This document shows positions 6,395 to 33,300 of a stretch of DNA of 38,845 nucleotides, one piece after another. Each line of letters begins with the position of its first letter. Position 1 is the stretch's first letter. Location of the stretch: the IMG/VR virus record IMGVR_UViG_3300020045_007055, positions 1 through 38,845 of that record. One strand, given 5' to 3'. This DNA comes from a virus. Lineage: Duplodnaviria; Caudoviricetes. Position numbers and translations under genes: made by a program. The notes below the pieces were generated by a model, which did no database searches, was not told where the DNA came from, and worked only from the letters and a program-made list of their open reading frames with translations.

Positions 6395-6784
6395 ATGAAA
6401 TCCAAGGAGCTCCTTATCAATTTTCCTGAGAGTTTGCGTAGCAAAAAACAATGGGTGATGTGGAAGATGGTTAAAATCGTAGATAAAAAAACAGGTGCAG
6501 ACAGATATACCAAAGTACCTTTTCAAGTTAATGGACGAAACGCCGCGGTCGATAATCCGAATACATGGAGTACATTCCAGGCATGTTACGAAGCGGCCGA
6601 CAAGTGGGATGGTGTCGGGTTTGTATTTACGGATGGCATTATCGGCATCGATCTCGACAAGTGTTTTGAATACGACGGAACATTAAAAGACTTCGCGCAG
6701 GACATTCTCTTATCGTTTGATTCTTATACAGAGCGATCTCCGAGTGGGAATGGACTGCATATCATCATAGAAAGCAACATATAA
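6395..6784 (+). pseudogene. N-terminal primase-polymerase (AEP) domain, truncated
   Basis: QWVMW...KVPFQ...NPNTWSTF...GVGFVF..GIIGIDLDKC...YTERSPSGNGLHII, then an abrupt stop at the inversion junction. Confidence 0.85.
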
Positions 6785-25983: not shown

Positions 25984-27462
25984 ATGGCAGTCATTGACTC
26001 AGGATCATCTTCCGCAGGAAAGGTAAACGTGGACGCTGGGTTTAACCTAAACGTCACGCTTCCAACAAACGATGCGTACACGGGAAAAGTGCGCATGATG
26101 AGTGAGAACGACGCAGGGGAGATTACAGGATCGCCATTTTTAAAAAGCCCTGAAACATCGCCAGACTATCGGTTGCGTGTAGGCGTGGACACATTACTAT
26201 TTGAGGATTCATTTAATGCCGCCGCACAGAATACAAACCTCTGGGCGTATACGTTCGCAACGCTCACAGCTGCACAGCCCGGGGCTGGAACAGTAAACTT
26301 CTCTACGGTGCAGGGCACGACAAGCGCACATGGTGCGTTCATGCGCACGTTCCAACACTTTCCATTGACGAATACGGCGCCGCTCGCAATTGAATTCATG
26401 GGGGGGTCTTTCATTGCGCCGCTCGTGGCAAACGAAAACTGGCTTGCTGGCATTGGCTTGCCTTCATCAGCAGTCGCACGACCTACTGATGGCGTATGGT
26501 TTAAGCTCACGACAGCGGGCCTTGAAGGCGTACAGGCATTTAACGGAACAGAAACGTCGACTGGTGTCTTATATCCGTTTGAATCAATTCAGACAGGCGT
26601 AATGGGTAAATATCTCATTGTAATTGGTGAGCGTGAAATTGAATTCTGGGTTGATGATATATTATTGGGTGAATTGGAAATTCCAACTGGCAATGCGGTC
26701 CCGTGGCTCGGTGTGTCAGCTCCTGTTTTCTTGATGAAATACAACACTGGCGCTGTTTCAAATACAAACCAAATGCGCGTTGCACGTATCGGAGTATCTT
26801 TAATCGATCTCCAGAGCAATCGTACATGGGCAACAACAAAGGGCGCATCTGGGTGCAGTCTGTCTGTTGGTCAGAACGGCTACGCAATGGGTAACACGGG
26901 CGGGAATGTAGGCACAACGTCTGCTATTGCGGGAACGCAGGCCGGGTCAAATACAGCGCCAAACGCCGTCATGGCTGGGTTGGGTGGTATTTTTCAGATG
27001 ACTGCACAGGCCAGCGCCGCTGGGGCATCTGGTGACATGATCGCGTCGTATTACCTCAATCCGATTCCGACAATAAATATCACGGGGCGCAATTACTTGG
27101 TTTACGGATGCAAGATAACGGCTATCAACTACGGTGCAGTTGTGGCGACAACGCCAACAACACTCATTTGGGGCTTGGCATATGGCCATACGAATGTGTC
27201 GCTAGCGACAACAGACACAGGTTCATTCGTGACAGCGACAACGCACTCGCCACGTCACATCATGCTTGGGTCAAACTACGTGCCTGTTGGTGCTGTTGTT
27301 GGTCAGCCATATGATAAGGAGATATTGATGCGCTTTGATGGGTGTCCGATTGTTGTCCGTCCGGGGGAATATTTAGCAACAACAGTACGCTTTATCGTGG
27401 GTACAGCCACCGCATCGCAGACGGTACTTTATACCGTTACATTTGATGGCCACTTTGAATAA
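25984..27462 (+). CDS. Virion structural protein (beta-rich, possible receptor binding)
   Basis: 492 aa, lectin-like middle region, in the tail operon. Confidence 0.7.
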   Translation: MAVIDSGSSSAGKVNVDAGFNLNVTLPTNDAYTGKVRMMSENDAGEITGSPFLKSPETSPDYRLRVGVDTLLFEDSFNAAAQNTNLWAYTFATLTAAQPGAGTVNFSTVQGTTSAHGAFMRTFQHFPLTNTAPLAIEFMGGSFIAPLVANENWLAGIGLPSSAVARPTDGVWFKLTTAGLEGVQAFNGTETSTGVLYPFESIQTGVMGKYLIVIGEREIEFWVDDILLGELEIPTGNAVPWLGVSAPVFLMKYNTGAVSNTNQMRVARIGVSLIDLQSNRTWATTKGASGCSLSVGQNGYAMGNTGGNVGTTSAIAGTQAGSNTAPNAVMAGLGGIFQMTAQASAAGASGDMIASYYLNPIPTINITGRNYLVYGCKITAINYGAVVATTPTTLIWGLAYGHTNVSLATTDTGSFVTATTHSPRHIMLGSNYVPVGAVVGQPYDKEILMRFDGCPIVVRPGEYLATTVRFIVGTATASQTVLYTVTFDGHFE

Positions 27463-27465
27463 TCT

Positions 27466-27669
27466 ATGAATCAATCCGCACCTCTTGGCGCGAAGCCAAC
27501 AACAGCATCAAGCATCGTTGACGCATACCTCGCGCCACAGCAGTCAGCCACTGTGTCAAGTGAAATGTACGATCAGCAAAAACAGCAGACGATGGATCGT
27601 TTGATGAAGCTCCAAAATAAACAATCGTACATGCAGCGGTCCGGCATGGCGCCTCCTCCACAAATCTAA
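27466..27669 (+). CDS. Small Gln-rich protein (possible ejection protein)
   Basis: TAATCTATG junction shared with the neighbouring genes. Confidence 0.6.
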   Translation: MNQSAPLGAKPTTASSIVDAYLAPQQSATVSSEMYDQQKQQTMDRLMKLQNKQSYMQRSGMAPPPQI

Positions 27670-27674
27670 TCTAT

Positions 27675-30407
27675 ATGGCAACAACACAAACACCACCAGT
27701 CACAAATGGGCAAAACGGTAATATCACCGTGCCTATTCAGTCAACGGGAGGGTACACGCAGGCACAGGTGTCGGATTTAGCAAAAGCGAATCCGGGGCAG
27801 GTGGTGCAGGGCGCACAAACCGGATCGACAGTTGGCGGTCAGGGCTTGCCTCCAGTTGCCACGTACGCGCAGTCATACACGGCGCCGGCAGTCAGCCCGG
27901 ATGCGCAGAAGTTCCTCGACCAACAAAAGCAATACGAGGCGAACACACAGCAAGCCATTTTAAATCAGCAGAACGCGAACAAAGTCGCGACAGCCTCTGG
28001 CACTACTTCCTATTTCGATTCCGCCAGCGGCACGTGGAAGTCAGGCTCTAGCCCACAGACACAAGCGGTTCAGCAGCAGGTCGCGACGCAGTCGAGTGGC
28101 ACAGCCGGCACGGGTGCGACAACATCGACTACGGACGCGAATTACGCGAACGATCCGCGCATGAAGATACTTGACCAACAGGCCGAGTACATCAAAAATA
28201 GTTTGAATAACCAGCAGCAGGCACTCAATGCGCAGTTCGATCAGAAGATACGAGCCGCAGCAGCGCAGCAAAAATCAGAATCTGGCCAGAGTTCAATGAC
28301 GCTCGCTCGCATGGGTGCAATGGGTACAACGGCATCCGGTGTCAGCTACATGCAGTCACTCGATGCACAGCACGCATCTACCATCAGCCAGATGGAGCAG
28401 GAACGACAGGCGTCTCTCATGCTGGCGCAAAATGCCGCAGATAGCCAATTGCTTGATCTTGCAGCGAAGCGTTTAGATGCCGTCGATGAAATTGACGCGA
28501 AGTACGAGAAGGCGCAGGCGAACAGGCTCGCGCAGCTATCCAAATATCAGGACGTGCAGGGCAAGAGCTATGACGCGCTCGCGGAAGCGGGAAAAACACT
28601 CGAAGATTTCCCTGAGGGATTTTTTGCGCACCAGGATGAGGTGCTGAATTCTTACGGCATCCAAGTGCCAGCAGGTACATCTGAGGCGCTGTTTGTTGCG
28701 TCACAGAAGGCGAATGAGGCCGCAAAAGCAGAAACTATCGCCGATCAGACGGACAAGGCAACAGCCGTCGCAAAGGATATCCAAAGCATCATGTCGAATA
28801 TGATGCCTGGCCAAGCCGTGCCAATTGGGTCCGGCACGTATTTCAACACCTCCGGGAGTGCCATTATTGAGGCAGACGCGAAAGGCATTGCGCGCATGAG
28901 CATCACGAAAGCGGATGGCACACAGGAGATCAAAAATCTTGGTCCTGTTGGGAAGGCGAGTGATCTCACGCGTGAAATGCATAATGGTAAAGAGATGCTT
29001 TTCAATAAGACGACGCAAACATACACAGATATTTCCGGCGAGCCGTCGTTACGCGACACGATGATTAAGTTTTTCCCGAGTGGCAAAAAACCGCCTATCG
29101 GCAACGGCCAATGCGGGAATTCTTGGAATCTCGTTACCGGTGGGAAAGCGGGGAGAGTCGGTGATTCGCTTGAATCTAAAGTTGCGCTCACAGATCCATC
29201 GCTGAATATCTACCAGCTCGTACCTGGCGATTCATTCGTCATGTCAACAAATAAGCCATACGGTCATATTGGATTCATCAACCATATTGATCGTTTGGAC
29301 GATGGCCGATTGCAGTACACGTTGAGTGAAAGCAATTGGGACGGACAGGGCACGTGGACGAACGAGCGCAAGATGTTCTCTGATGATCCACGGTTGAAAG
29401 GATATATCTCTACACATGACAAGCTACCTGCTGAAATGATGGCAGAGACGATTGGTGGAGAGGGTGTGCCTATGCAAACAGATGTACCAGACGATTCATC
29501 CAATGGGTTCACAATTCCTAATAACCCGCTTACCGCGTTTTCTGGTACGATGAAAGAATTTGATACTGCTAAGAAAGCAGAGGAACAGGCGGTACTCGCG
29601 GCAAAATCACTTGTGTCCAAAGATTTGAAGATTACGGAAGTTCCCGCTGGTGTCCGAGGACGTGCGCTTGAAATTGCAAAAGCAAATGGATATAACCAAG
29701 AGGAAGGCGAGGCATCAGAAAATCCATTTGCGAAAGGATTGATCGACGGCACGATCAAGCTGACTGAAATCCCTATGGCTTCACGAAGAGAGGCGCTGTC
29801 ATTAGCGCAAAAAGCCGGGTATACACCAAAGGGAAACAAGAAATTTCAAGACATGAGCGAGACAGCAAAAAATGAGTTTACAGATCTGCTCACCATGGAG
29901 GATCAGATCAATAATATTGAGGCGTTTAAGACAACTGGAGCTGAAGGAAAAGAACAAGACACTGGTCCACTCGCGGCAGGGACAAACGCAATACGTGGTT
30001 GGTTCAATATGGCAGATCAAAATTTGCTTGATATAGACTCAATCACGCAGGATTTGAAATCGAATATCATGAAACAGCGCTCAGGCGCAGCGGTACACGA
30101 ATCAGAAGTCAAACGCTTGTCGAAGTTTATCCCGAGCGTTTCTGATAACGATCAAGCCTTCAACACGAAGCTCGCGCACTTAAAAGAGACGTATAAAACG
30201 ATGCTTGAAAATCAAGCTAAGCTCCATGGTTTTTCTGATTTAGCATCATTCAAAAAGGAGTTCGGCATTGGTACGCAGGACCCCGGCACGGAGGAAACTA
30301 ACGCTACACCTACCGCCGATCTATCTGTAACAACGCCGGATGGGCAGACATTCACGTTCAGCTCGCAAGCAGATCTCGAAAACTTTAAGAAACAAGCAGG
30401 GCTCTAA
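27675..30407 (+). CDS. Internal virion (ejection) protein with an embedded CHAP amidase domain
   Basis: Gln/Ala coiled-coil N-half; GQCGN...PGDSFV....PYGHIGFI...LSESNW is the CHAP Cys-His-Glu pattern. Confidence 0.8.
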   Translation: MATTQTPPVTNGQNGNITVPIQSTGGYTQAQVSDLAKANPGQVVQGAQTGSTVGGQGLPPVATYAQSYTAPAVSPDAQKFLDQQKQYEANTQQAILNQQNANKVATASGTTSYFDSASGTWKSGSSPQTQAVQQQVATQSSGTAGTGATTSTTDANYANDPRMKILDQQAEYIKNSLNNQQQALNAQFDQKIRAAAAQQKSESGQSSMTLARMGAMGTTASGVSYMQSLDAQHASTISQMEQERQASLMLAQNAADSQLLDLAAKRLDAVDEIDAKYEKAQANRLAQLSKYQDVQGKSYDALAEAGKTLEDFPEGFFAHQDEVLNSYGIQVPAGTSEALFVASQKANEAAKAETIADQTDKATAVAKDIQSIMSNMMPGQAVPIGSGTYFNTSGSAIIEADAKGIARMSITKADGTQEIKNLGPVGKASDLTREMHNGKEMLFNKTTQTYTDISGEPSLRDTMIKFFPSGKKPPIGNGQCGNSWNLVTGGKAGRVGDSLESKVALTDPSLNIYQLVPGDSFVMSTNKPYGHIGFINHIDRLDDGRLQYTLSESNWDGQGTWTNERKMFSDDPRLKGYISTHDKLPAEMMAETIGGEGVPMQTDVPDDSSNGFTIPNNPLTAFSGTMKEFDTAKKAEEQAVLAAKSLVSKDLKITEVPAGVRGRALEIAKANGYNQEEGEASENPFAKGLIDGTIKLTEIPMASRREALSLAQKAGYTPKGNKKFQDMSETAKNEFTDLLTMEDQINNIEAFKTTGAEGKEQDTGPLAAGTNAIRGWFNMADQNLLDIDSITQDLKSNIMKQRSGAAVHESEVKRLSKFIPSVSDNDQAFNTKLAHLKETYKTMLENQAKLHGFSDLASFKKEFGIGTQDPGTEETNATPTADLSVTTPDGQTFTFSSQADLENFKKQAGL

Positions 30408-30412
30408 AATCT

Positions 30413-33262
30413 ATGGCAATCGACTACGCGGCCTTAGCCAAGAAAAATGGAGGCGCAGTCAAGACTGATTACACGGCCTTGGCAAAACAATTCAACGGTA
30501 CGGCACAGTCTGCACCAAAGCCAACGCCCGCGACGGACGGGACATTGGACTATCTGAAGACGACTAATGCGCCGCAGGGTGCATGGGACATTGCGAAGGG
30601 GTTTGCAAAGACAGCCATTGAAAAGCCGTTCAATGCCGCTAAACTTGGCATGTCGAACGCAGCGCAAACAGCAGTGGACTATTTCCCCATTGGTTTTGAC
30701 CGTGAGAAACGAGATGTTCTTACGTTAGGCGAAGCCATCAAGCGCGACATGGGCACGCTCGCATCGTACTTGTCGCCTGAAAAGAAAAAGGAACTTCACG
30801 ATAAAGCGCAGGAGGTTCAGGCTGGGCTTCAGAAAGGCGCGACGCCATTTGCGCTCTTGGAACGTAATAACGCCGGTGAGCGCATGGGTGAATTCGTCGA
30901 GCGTACGGGGGAAATGATTGCAGCTGGTGGCATGTTCAATGCTGCTCCTACGACAGGCATGGCACGTCTTCCGGCTATCTTGCAGAATTCGCTCGTGACT
31001 GAGGCGACGACCGCACTCCAAAAAGGGGATATCACGCCGGAGGATCTAATGGGGTCTGTAGCATTCGGAGGCATGACGCAGCTTGGGGCAATCCCAAATG
31101 CGCTTTTTGGTACGGATCAGGCCATTGGCGCTATAAAGTCAGCCAAGGAGGGAAATTACGAGCAGGCCATTCAGGAGGGTGTGATGGGTGCTATGGGTAT
31201 TCACGGAGCCATGAAACAGCGCGGCATGATACTTGATAGGCCGATAGGCGATATTGGCCCTGTGCCAGCGCCAAAAGCCTCTGGGACACGATACGCGTCG
31301 GCATTTGAGCCGGAGGGAAATATCATCAATAGATTTGGGAAAAAACAGCAAATGGCTATTATTAAGCCAACGCGAAAAGACATTGACAATGGGTTCGATG
31401 TCAACACGCTTACTGAGTTTGGTCTGGGAGGATCAACAGACAAAATGTGGGTCAAGACGAATGCGAAGATCGCTGAATATGGCGAGCACCTGGCTAAGAT
31501 CAGACAAGAGTGGGGCGATCCAATGGTTATTGACATGCACAAGGCGTATCAAGATACGGTTGCTGATCTAACGGCTAAAGGAAAGAGCTTTCATCAGGAG
31601 GAGACGCAAAATGCCTTAAATAAAATGGCACGTGAGATTGAGCTGAATCATCCTGAATGGAAAGATCAAAAGGTTTCATTTAACGATGGATGGAATGCCA
31701 AACTTCAGTCGGGAGACGAGGCAGCGTTTCATAGTGATCCAATGAAGCGCGGCACGGAGTCGCCACAAGAGGAGGCGTGGAATACGCTATATCGTAAGTT
31801 AAAATTGCAGCTTGAGGAAAACGCACCGCCAGAATATAAGCAGGTAAATGAGGCACTCACAAAACTGATTCCTGTGCGCCAAACACTCTTCCGTGCGTTG
31901 AATCAAGAGGGGCGCAATCACGTCCTGTCACTCCACGATGTGATTGCTGGCGCGGCGATTACAGCACATCCAAGCGCCGCAGCGTTTGCTATTACACAGA
32001 AACTCTTGCGGAATGGTGGTATTGCGGGTTTTCTCGCTGGTCTTGGCCGTTCCAAGACTGCATTCAAGCCAGGGGAAATATCAAAACGTCCTCAGTATCT
32101 CACGCTTCCGCCAGGTAAGACGCAGTATGCGGGTCCGGCAACAACACCGACCGGCGAATCACGCCTTATGTCGCAAGGTGAGGCGGTCCAATCCTACCGT
32201 GAGCAGGGGTCAGCCATGGGTCTGACAAAGGAGGAACATATGGCAGCAGCGCAACCGAAGTCGGTATTTGCAACACTGGAAGCTGCACAAAAACCAGAAT
32301 CAATGCCAGCAATGTTGCCATCGGAATTGGCGTCACTTGAATCGAGCTACAATGGCGGAGATACAGCGCGGATCGCGGCGCGGAATATCCAACAGAGCAT
32401 CAAACAGGAAAACGCGCAGATACGCGAACAGACGCAGGCTGAACGCCAACAGCAGGCACAAGCGTTTAACGAATCGCGCAATCCATACTTGGATAATCCG
32501 CGTGTGCTTGGTGCTATCAAGGCACATGCTGAATATCGCCGTGAAGGCAGGGTCAAGGATACGATGGGCGAGGGTGCTATTTATGAACGCGATGGTAAAT
32601 ATCGAATTGCCAGTACACCAGCCGAAAAAGAGGCGCTATCATCATTAGGGTTCAAGAACAGTGGTATTGGCGTGGATTCGCTCGCGGAGGAAGCCGGATT
32701 CACGAATGGCGAGGAGTATCTGAATGCGGTGTTAAAGCAGGCGGAGGGAGCGAAGATGTATGGAAAACCCATAGACACGAGCGGCTATACACCGGCGTCA
32801 AAATTGCTTGAATCGGCTTTTAACGCTTCAAGAAATATTGACAACATATATAAAGATTTTGACTTAGGTTCTTTTGGAAGAAACCATCAGGATAGAAAAA
32901 TCGCCGAAGGTAAGTTTGACAGATTCCCTGAATCTGAGCTTGTAGATACATTAAAAAATGCTGAGCCATTTTCCCGTGGGTCAAATGATCCAAGTAATTA
33001 TCGTGTTGATAACACTATTTGGATAGCTGAGATGCCTAATGGCGAAACACGTGCTATTTATACAAGAAAAAATAAAGCCGGAAATAATGAAATTGTTAAC
33101 TGGCACGAAATACCGGAAACAAAAAAGGACAGCTATTTATTCAAACTGTCCACTTTTGGTGTCCCCAATGGGATTCAAACCCATATTGACGGCTTAGAAG
33201 GCCATGCGCCTATTCAGTTGGCGGATGGGGACAGCCAAAGTATAGCACCCAGCGCAGAATAA
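30413..33262 (+). CDS. Large internal virion (ejection) protein with a putative C-terminal RNase-toxin-like domain
   Basis: MAIDYAALAKK repeat N-terminus, Ala/Gly helical body, last gene of the structural operon, compositionally distinct C-terminal alpha+beta domain. Confidence 0.75.
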   Translation: MAIDYAALAKKNGGAVKTDYTALAKQFNGTAQSAPKPTPATDGTLDYLKTTNAPQGAWDIAKGFAKTAIEKPFNAAKLGMSNAAQTAVDYFPIGFDREKRDVLTLGEAIKRDMGTLASYLSPEKKKELHDKAQEVQAGLQKGATPFALLERNNAGERMGEFVERTGEMIAAGGMFNAAPTTGMARLPAILQNSLVTEATTALQKGDITPEDLMGSVAFGGMTQLGAIPNALFGTDQAIGAIKSAKEGNYEQAIQEGVMGAMGIHGAMKQRGMILDRPIGDIGPVPAPKASGTRYASAFEPEGNIINRFGKKQQMAIIKPTRKDIDNGFDVNTLTEFGLGGSTDKMWVKTNAKIAEYGEHLAKIRQEWGDPMVIDMHKAYQDTVADLTAKGKSFHQEETQNALNKMAREIELNHPEWKDQKVSFNDGWNAKLQSGDEAAFHSDPMKRGTESPQEEAWNTLYRKLKLQLEENAPPEYKQVNEALTKLIPVRQTLFRALNQEGRNHVLSLHDVIAGAAITAHPSAAAFAITQKLLRNGGIAGFLAGLGRSKTAFKPGEISKRPQYLTLPPGKTQYAGPATTPTGESRLMSQGEAVQSYREQGSAMGLTKEEHMAAAQPKSVFATLEAAQKPESMPAMLPSELASLESSYNGGDTARIAARNIQQSIKQENAQIREQTQAERQQQAQAFNESRNPYLDNPRVLGAIKAHAEYRREGRVKDTMGEGAIYERDGKYRIASTPAEKEALSSLGFKNSGIGVDSLAEEAGFTNGEEYLNAVLKQAEGAKMYGKPIDTSGYTPASKLLESAFNASRNIDNIYKDFDLGSFGRNHQDRKIAEGKFDRFPESELVDTLKNAEPFSRGSNDPSNYRVDNTIWIAEMPNGETRAIYTRKNKAGNNEIVNWHEIPETKKDSYLFKLSTFGVPNGIQTHIDGLEGHAPIQLADGDSQSIAPSAE
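33121..33151 (-). terminator. Intrinsic terminator of the nested tRNA
   Basis: Minus strand GGACAGTT-TGAATAAAT-AGCTGTCC-TTTTTT, 5 nt after the tRNA CCA. Confidence 0.75.
33157..33232 (-). tRNA. tRNA-Arg (anticodon TCT), antisense inside CDS 30413..33262
   Basis: GTCCCCA TC CGCC AACTGAATA GGCG C ATGGC CTTCTAA GCCGT CAAT ATGGG TTTGAAT CCCAT TGGGGAC A CCA: 76 nt, all four stems paired, encoded CCA. Confidence 0.9.
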
Positions 33263-33267
33263 GTAAA
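33239..33267 (-). promoter_or_regulatory. sigma70 promoter of the nested tRNA
   Basis: TTTACT-17 nt-TATACT with extended TG (TGCTATACT); 6 nt separate the -10 box from tRNA base 1. Confidence 0.8.
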
Positions 33268-33269
33268 CT

Positions 33270-33300
33270 AAAAACATCCGCCTTGCCAGCGGATGTTTTT
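33270..33300. terminator. Bidirectional intrinsic terminator between convergent operons
   Basis: AAAAACATCCGC-CTTGCCA-GCGGATGTTTTT. Confidence 0.9.

Follow-up and report, generated by a model that had tools for sequence, protein, structure and literature searches.

Type III toxin-antitoxin systems combine an RNase toxin with an antitoxin of repeated pseudoknot RNAs, which are encoded upstream on the same strand and are processed and bound by the toxin, and colicin D recognises the D-arm of its tRNA. Colicin D is a secreted protein that cuts four tRNA-Arg isoacceptors; its catalysis depends on a His, and its immunity factor is a protein (1tfk, in part). BECR-like (Barnase-EndoU-ColicinE5/D-RelE) folds occur in giant virion-associated multidomain phage proteins as PBECR1-5 and MuF-C (PMC5512222, in part), and viral tRNA variants restore translation after cleavage by host anticodon nucleases, as with T5 tRNA-Lys against PARIS (compare van den Berg et al. 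2023). Here we describe a cassette in which a domain of predicted BECR fold is followed directly by an antisense tRNA-Arg(UCU) gene nested in the same open reading frame (ORF). It lies in protein P0001 of the phage record IMGVR_UViG_3300020045_007055 (G000), which with its 38,845 bp and direct terminal repeats is a complete virus record and is called the window throughout. The locus has the following features:

30413..33262, plus strand: carrier protein P0001, 949 amino acids (aa), last gene of the virion module
32816..33157, plus strand: colicin D-like domain of predicted BECR fold, aa 802-915 of P0001
33157..33232, minus strand: tRNA-Arg(UCU), 76 nt, CCA encoded, its complement translated as aa 915-940 of the carrier
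33239..33267, minus strand: sigma70-type promoter motif, -35 TTTACT at 33267-33262, 17 nt, TG-extended -10 TATACT at 33244-33239
33121..33151, minus strand: predicted intrinsic terminator following the CCA, with an 8-bp stem, a 9-nt loop and U6
33270..33300, no strand assigned: strong hairpin with flanking A and T runs, just 3' of the stop codon

As in type III systems, a predicted RNase toxin stands beside a putative RNA antidote. The cassette RNA is, however, a single true tRNA located downstream, antisense and inside the ORF, and no repeated pseudoknot RNA lies upstream on the toxin strand; the tRNA was the sole Rfam match over cut-off between positions 30000 and 36000. An OrzO-P match below cut-off (E 0.13) corresponded to the downstream terminator and was rejected. 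Colicin D is the best structural match of the domain, at 8% identity, and its substrate tRNA-Arg is of the cassette tRNA isotype; it is not phage-borne. In T5-type rescue the nuclease belongs to the host and the tRNA is free-standing, whereas here both would be phage-borne, in one frame and moving together. The cassette carriers share LPD38, LPD14 and PBECR5 with the polyvalent PBECR proteins, but the available portion of PMC5512222 does not mention a fixed nested tRNA gene. A description of the cassette was not found in the literature, a search in which subscription journals were mostly uncovered and the supplements of the 2017 paper and a 2026 preprint could list the domain family. The novelty lies in the architecture, which is shown here; the mechanism proposed below is inferred.

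Linkage of the domain and the antisense tRNA

A phmmer search with aa 803-949 against 1.84 billion representative proteins returned 111 relatives, in which the domain sits mostly inside giant polyvalent proteins (carriers up to 3,700 aa). DNA was fetched for 11 relative loci (5 viral, 5 metagenome and 1 genome), 10 of them distinct; L011 equals L012 in sequence, and L008 is closely related to L002. All 11 carry a tRNA-Arg(TCT) antisense directly behind the domain, and in 9 of the 10 distinct relatives no stop interrupts the ORF across the tRNA, L007 being the one with a stop inside it. Other candidate loci were discarded as repeat matches (L013, L014) or false pattern matches (L016, L021). In the alignment of 112 rows, 106 proteins could be scored, having a residue at G916. 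The tRNA footprint is read through (at least 26 aa) in 91 of them and stops earlier in 15, and 81/106 extend more than 100 aa beyond the domain. Translation of an antisense tRNA accounts for the read-through peptide, with G at offset 0 in 89/91 and RT at offsets 6-7 in 89-90. A UCU anticodon fits 89 of the 91 peptides, 67 through [LIV]E and 22 through Arg (one re-registered by eye), the two patterns reflecting the two phases without a stop that a UCU anticodon loop offers when the variable loop has 4 or 5 nt. Members in the xR phase are Arg tRNAs, because there the peptide spells out the codon being decoded; members in the [LIV]E phase have U34-C35 fixed and position 36 free. We regard the architecture, a domain and an antisense tRNA-Arg in one ORF with fixed order, strand and phase, as established virtually beyond doubt.

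The first-pass annotation had proposed an antisense tRNA coupled to the domain. ARAGORN found a tRNA-Arg(TCT) inside the carrier ORF, its only tRNA over the whole window, and Rfam matched it as a tRNA (RF00005, 49.3 bits, E 1.4e-8); tight coupling to the domain was borne out. Covariation of the anticodon with the domain clade, which it had raised, was not seen: the anticodon is UCU in 11/11 DNA loci, and the tRNA frame types are scattered over the domain tree. In a small clade, P0085 (aa ~725-745) and P0091 (aa ~776-796) have FE at the anticodon footprint, which would correspond to UCG or UCA, and P0085 has Arg in place of K829; this FE clade is a possible specificity switch. Single-protein scans of IMG/VR gave no DNA match for these two.

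The cassette is a mobile unit among otherwise unrelated carrier proteins. The 94 carriers of at least 600 aa fall into 66 clusters outside the cassette, and the first 790 aa of P0001 match only one of them. The domain is under selection for its protein sequence, the tRNA and the terminator for their RNA: between L002 and L008, 51/300 nt of the domain differ, with 31 synonymous and 14 non-synonymous codon changes, while 1/75 nt differ in the tRNA and 2/48 in the terminator stretch, with no codon periodicity over the tRNA. No tRNA other than that of the cassette occurs in the window or in 3/5 related phage records, and no second tRNA footprint was found elsewhere in the carriers. A tblastn search of GenBank phages and plasmids gave no domain match.

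The tRNA itself has a cloverleaf, UCU anticodon and A20 and A73. Across the window and 10 relatives, at 50-98% identity, 219/231 stem cells are paired, A37, U8 and R73 are present in 11/11, the D-loops keep the A20 position, and the 3' end is CCA in 10 and CCG in L010. The window tRNA has A19/U56 instead of G19/C56, a swap that preserves the tertiary pair and is private to this phage (U56 in 1/11).

The -10 of the window ends 6 nt before tRNA nucleotide 1, so that transcription is predicted to start at this nucleotide, a purine in every cassette, and to give a leaderless transcript. TAnnnT at this gap was seen in 11/11 cassettes vs. 1/29 host tRNA-Arg(UCU) genes (background 2.4%); the TG extension is present in 8/11 and a -35 with at least 5/6 matches in 7/11. 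At the protein level, the peptide footprint of the -10 was found in 62/87 (background 7%) and that of the -35 in 37/87 (0.7%). The terminator at 33121..33151 is double-coded in the last helix of the domain and is more stable than 99% of synonymous recodings; with its 9-nt loop it was found by folding, the other terminator listing being limited to loops of at most 8 nt. Among the cassettes, a hairpin after the CCA outdoes synonymous recoding in 6/11 (p<=0.056) and is absent in 5/11. The hairpin at 33270..33300 is likely a bidirectional terminator, which would insulate the tRNA promoter.

The idea that the leaderless layout is unique to the cassette was rejected, as 71 other viral tRNAs fit the promoter pattern. 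Among the 74 viral tRNAs with this layout the domain occurs at 3, all known cassettes, and among 24 matches to the G11-C24 tRNA-Arg pattern at 2, also known cassettes; 0/71 and 0/22 of the others carry it. The 71 non-cassette tRNAs (L061-L134), with TTGAC..TAnnnT ending 6 nt before nucleotide 1, include 17 Met/CAT, 13 Trp and 3 with a CTA anticodon. Leaderless tRNAs may be common among phages; our literature search found no paper on them.

The sole cellular record of the cassette is the metagenome-assembled genome (MAG) G001, titled Saccharibacteria, which was also the only one with the domain among 401 sampled genomes (two samples, covering the phylum and the class of G001). Here a phage cassette fragment (L012:635-2023; G001:C5, ~27100-28500) lies between host-type genes of this Patescibacteria-type MAG. 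The fragment starts inside the domain, so that G819, G822 and the K829 helix are gone; the tRNA and its promoter are intact. This pattern agrees with the tRNA being of use and the domain being dispensable or harmful, and capture of a phage tRNA by the host is possible; the MAG tRNA set is incomplete. Replacement of a host tRNA by the cassette is a weak proposal: its tRNA is the sole Arg(TCT) of 35 tRNAs, but Asn, Tyr and others are lacking too. G001 also has two tRNA-Ile with a TAT anticodon (L139, L151), and none with GAT was found in it.

Predicted fold and conserved residues of the domain

The stretch before the tRNA had been described in the first-pass annotation as AT-richer than the gene body, and this was borne out. 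Codons 802-915 have a GC content of 0.35 and a third-position GC (GC3) of 0.27, against 0.52 and 0.51 for codons 1-801, in which the lowest 342-nt stretch has 0.44. The dip is not universal (0.52 vs. 0.53 in L001).

AlphaFold gave an unusable model from the single sequence (predicted local distance difference test score, pLDDT, of 47), and a pLDDT of 94.5 with a 67-sequence alignment. The latter model has a hairpin-helix-helix topology, continued by a meander of 4 strands and closed by a helix at the C-terminus. The short helices followed by a beta meander, previously read by eye, are thus seen in the model; the His assigned to them is not supported as a catalytic residue, since H825 is retained in 26/111 aligned sequences only and Lys829 and Arg864 are conserved instead. 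Near-invariant residues are K829 (108/110; on helix 820-831), R864 (111/111) and R837 (109/111), and the conserved positions further include G819, G822, D836, N867, R885, N887 and E893. On the last strand, N896 was found in 84/111 (Ser/Thr in 14/111) and H898 in 80/110.

The model contains the core of the Colicin-like BECR group, a pre-alpha helix with alpha-beta1-4, at modest Z, and conserved residues lie on the pre-alpha helix (K829) and the terminal strand (N896, H898). The best match in VIA was colicin D (5znm; Z 7.1, root-mean-square deviation (rmsd) 3.2, 91 aligned residues). BrnT (Z 6.8) and a second colicin D row (Z 6.2, rmsd 2.8, 77 aligned) are also among the top seven rows, which consist of two of colicin D, BrnT, three contact-dependent inhibition (CDI) toxins and one toxin-antitoxin toxin. 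BFVD and Atlas neighbours were MuF-C/PBECR proteins, the Atlas scores of 0.85-0.88 serving as leads only. We consider that the domain very probably has the BECR fold previously assigned by eye, because these three routes agree despite Z below 8. Taken alone, the domain represents a new family within a fold that is already known. It fell into no Pfam family and, convincingly, into none of PHROG/PADLOC; no sequence relative was found in the PDB, and 0/18 members matched the Pfam PBECR1-5/MuF_C models at E<=10.

K829 is predicted to lie near colicin D His611, which we take to be the catalytic His, the register being estimated from the stretches over which the two align (model 21-115, colicin D 604-697). 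With this register the cassette domain has Lys on the helix in place of the His/Arg of PBECRs, and mostly Asn instead of Thr/Ser on the last strand. The polyvalent virion-module location is that of PBECRs, as seen from the protein length after the domain, the LPD domains and the gene position. Colicin E5 is an active His-less tRNase that uses Arg/Lys (PMC1669751, in part), and the helix and loop positions of K829, R864 and R837 are where colicin-like active sites lie (bioRxiv 10.64898/2026.08.28.747851, in part).

Possible roles of the cassette

We lean, at about an even chance of being right, towards an anticodon nuclease that arrives with the virion, attacks tRNA-Arg(UCU) and has the nested genome-encoded tRNA as its antidote. 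The carrier would be packaged and ejected together with the DNA, and the domain would cut host tRNA-Arg(UCU) by means of Lys829, Arg864 and Arg837 rather than a helix His. Host RNA polymerase would make the leaderless, CCA-ended tRNA right after DNA entry, with little processing needed; this tRNA would resist or out-supply cleavage and restore AGA decoding. Only cells in which the phage DNA persists would be rescued, with a second round late in infection during synthesis of the carrier. We favour a nuclease with a replacement tRNA because a promoter of host type would be active as the DNA enters and a leaderless, CCA-ended tRNA would mature quickly, in step with an injected effector. The predicted colicin-like fold, the fixed linkage and the persistence of the G001 tRNA beyond the domain also support this, as does the finding that no immunity-protein candidate follows the carrier gene in the window, where a terminator and convergent genes are present instead.

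Several observations weigh against it. In the window late genes, AGA makes up only 9% of Arg codons and CGN 88%; the benefit would therefore not be codon supply. A helix His, as typically found in PBECRs, is lacking, and Phe replaces H898 in 28/110 sequences, one clade in which the tRNA is still kept. The best Z is in the range (<8) where VIA warns of a merely common arrangement, and Foldseek gave no PDB match for the domain model at E<=0.001. The anticodon loop is mostly host-like (C32/A38 in 7/11). The D-stem is unlike that of Patescibacteria, with G11-C24 in 8/11 vs. C11-G24 in 28/29 host tRNAs and U12-A23 in 1/11 vs. 29/29; this is not forced by the ORF, as 21/29 host tRNAs would stay open in frame. 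Such a D-stem is compatible with immunity, but it is not a cassette-specific mark of it, because non-cassette phage tRNA-Arg(UCU) deviate likewise (canonical GCUC in 2/11, and further G11-C24 cases). The Patescibacteria host is a weak lead, because it comes from the single Saccharibacteria-titled MAG fragment, and the capsid protein has no relative in the 401 genomes.

A short variable loop was rejected as an immunity mark, since G001's own Arg tRNAs share it. Many free-standing phage tRNA-Arg(UCU) (L183-L204, L062-L117) have D-stems with G11-C24, GUAU or GUGA, unlike the 29 host genes, which suggests a possible general escape from an Arg tRNase that reads the D-arm.

The main rival is a tRNA-binding or decoy module, in which the cognate tRNA would be a ligand of the domain. 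The domain could be an inactive BECR that serves counter-defence by packaging the tRNA or shielding it from host tRNases, or an active nuclease restrained by the bound tRNA in a type III-like manner. The Phe898 clade is the chief support for a non-catalytic role, and the missing helix His agrees with it; an inactive and probably RNA-binding PBECR is described in Mu MuF (Iyer 2017, PMC5512222, in part), phage tRNAs are known to counter host anticodon nucleases (PMC11464382 and PMC10264068, both in part), and non-canonical D-stems are common among phage tRNA-Arg generally. Yet the near-invariance of K829, R864 and R837 at colicin-like active-site positions, a full Arg identity and CCA that exceed the needs of a decoy, and a G001 tRNA that persists without an intact domain make a ligand role rather doubtful. 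An RNase acting on other RNA (mRNA, crRNA or defence RNA), with the tRNA as an independent anti-defence gene hitchhiking in frame, would agree with the mRNA or crRNA targets proposed for PBECRs (Iyer 2017, PMC5512222, in part) and with BrnT lying within 1 Z unit of colicin D. We find it improbable: polyvalent domains shuffle freely, but this domain and the tRNA stay together across the 66 carrier clusters, no second footprint occurs in the carriers, and the variable-loop type switches many times on the tree while the tRNA stays Arg.

Two further explanations fare worse. Use of the tRNA as an attachment (att) or recombination site, or in tRNA-dependent lysogeny, is disfavoured and very improbable. 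tRNAs are common att sites, one cassette fragment does lie in a bacterial MAG, and tRNA-dependent lysogeny exists (PMC10865867, in part). Against this, no integrase was found among the window ORFs scanned with Pfam, whereas tRNA-dependent lysogeny involves a tyrosine integrase with attP; G000 is a complete terminal-repeat record, the tRNAs are whole, no more than 50-98% alike and under their own promoter, and recombination would split a virion gene. A colicin D-style shut-off, in which all host tRNA-Arg would be destroyed and the phage would rely on AGA and its own tRNA, has hardly any likelihood: colicin D does cut four Arg isoacceptors (PMC1669751, in part) and AGA reaches 39-44% in G003 and G005, but it is 12% in G002 and 8% in G004, its share tracks GC3, and the CGN-dominated late genes rule out a total Arg shut-off for the window phage.

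Returning to the injected nuclease with its replacement tRNA, we tentatively suggest, as a possibility below even chance, that the cassette may be a phage dead-man's switch and a new class of toxin-antidote unit, with the nuclease injected as protein and a leaderless tRNA, transcribed from within its gene, as the only antidote. Destruction of the entering DNA by restriction or CRISPR would then leave a cell poisoned, AT-rich and AGA-rich defence genes would stall first, and a triple-coded cassette (ORF, tRNA with promoter, terminator) would spread whole between phage ejection proteins. Phage tRNAs are known to give rescue from nucleases of the host; here this logic would be turned round, the rescue being from the phage's own weapon. 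The BECR effectors of phages, which in 2017 had no settled targets, would gain a named candidate substrate. The cassette, ~450 bp in all, also shows a complete RNA transcription unit evolving within proteins as long as 3,700 aa.

The phage genome and neighbouring genes

The window holds the complete genome of a podovirus-like phage. The plus-strand run contains terminase, portal, capsid and tail genes and ends with two large unannotated ORFs, which by gene order are likely ejection proteins, P0001 being probably of the ejection/polyvalent type. P0001 itself gave no Pfam or PHROG match; LPD38, LPD14, PBECR5 and SNF2 were found in its relatives. The carrier closes the structural gene run in 4/4 related phage genomes mapped, as in the window, in agreement with the virion setting assumed earlier for the domain. 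Shine-Dalgarno motifs are missing at gene starts (16 inspected by eye).

Residues 698-782 of P0001 form a second small unnamed mobile domain, common to P0011 (35% identity, E 8e-10). The neighbouring 910-aa protein (27675-30407) has a weak CHAP-like stretch at aa 516-554 (E 0.022) and is likely an ejected peptidoglycan hydrolase. At 292-567 on the plus strand there is a long Ser/Arg-repeat frame (short tandem repeat), beside which a minus-strand DUF6948 gene lies (508-855). A 129-aa ORF at 6395-6784, with no Pfam match, resembles by eye the N-terminal part of a primase-polymerase with an early stop, and the frame ends without an obvious helicase partner. In the related 37-kb phage G005 (L058:6-1457), a GroEL-family chaperonin gene lies directly before the terminase.

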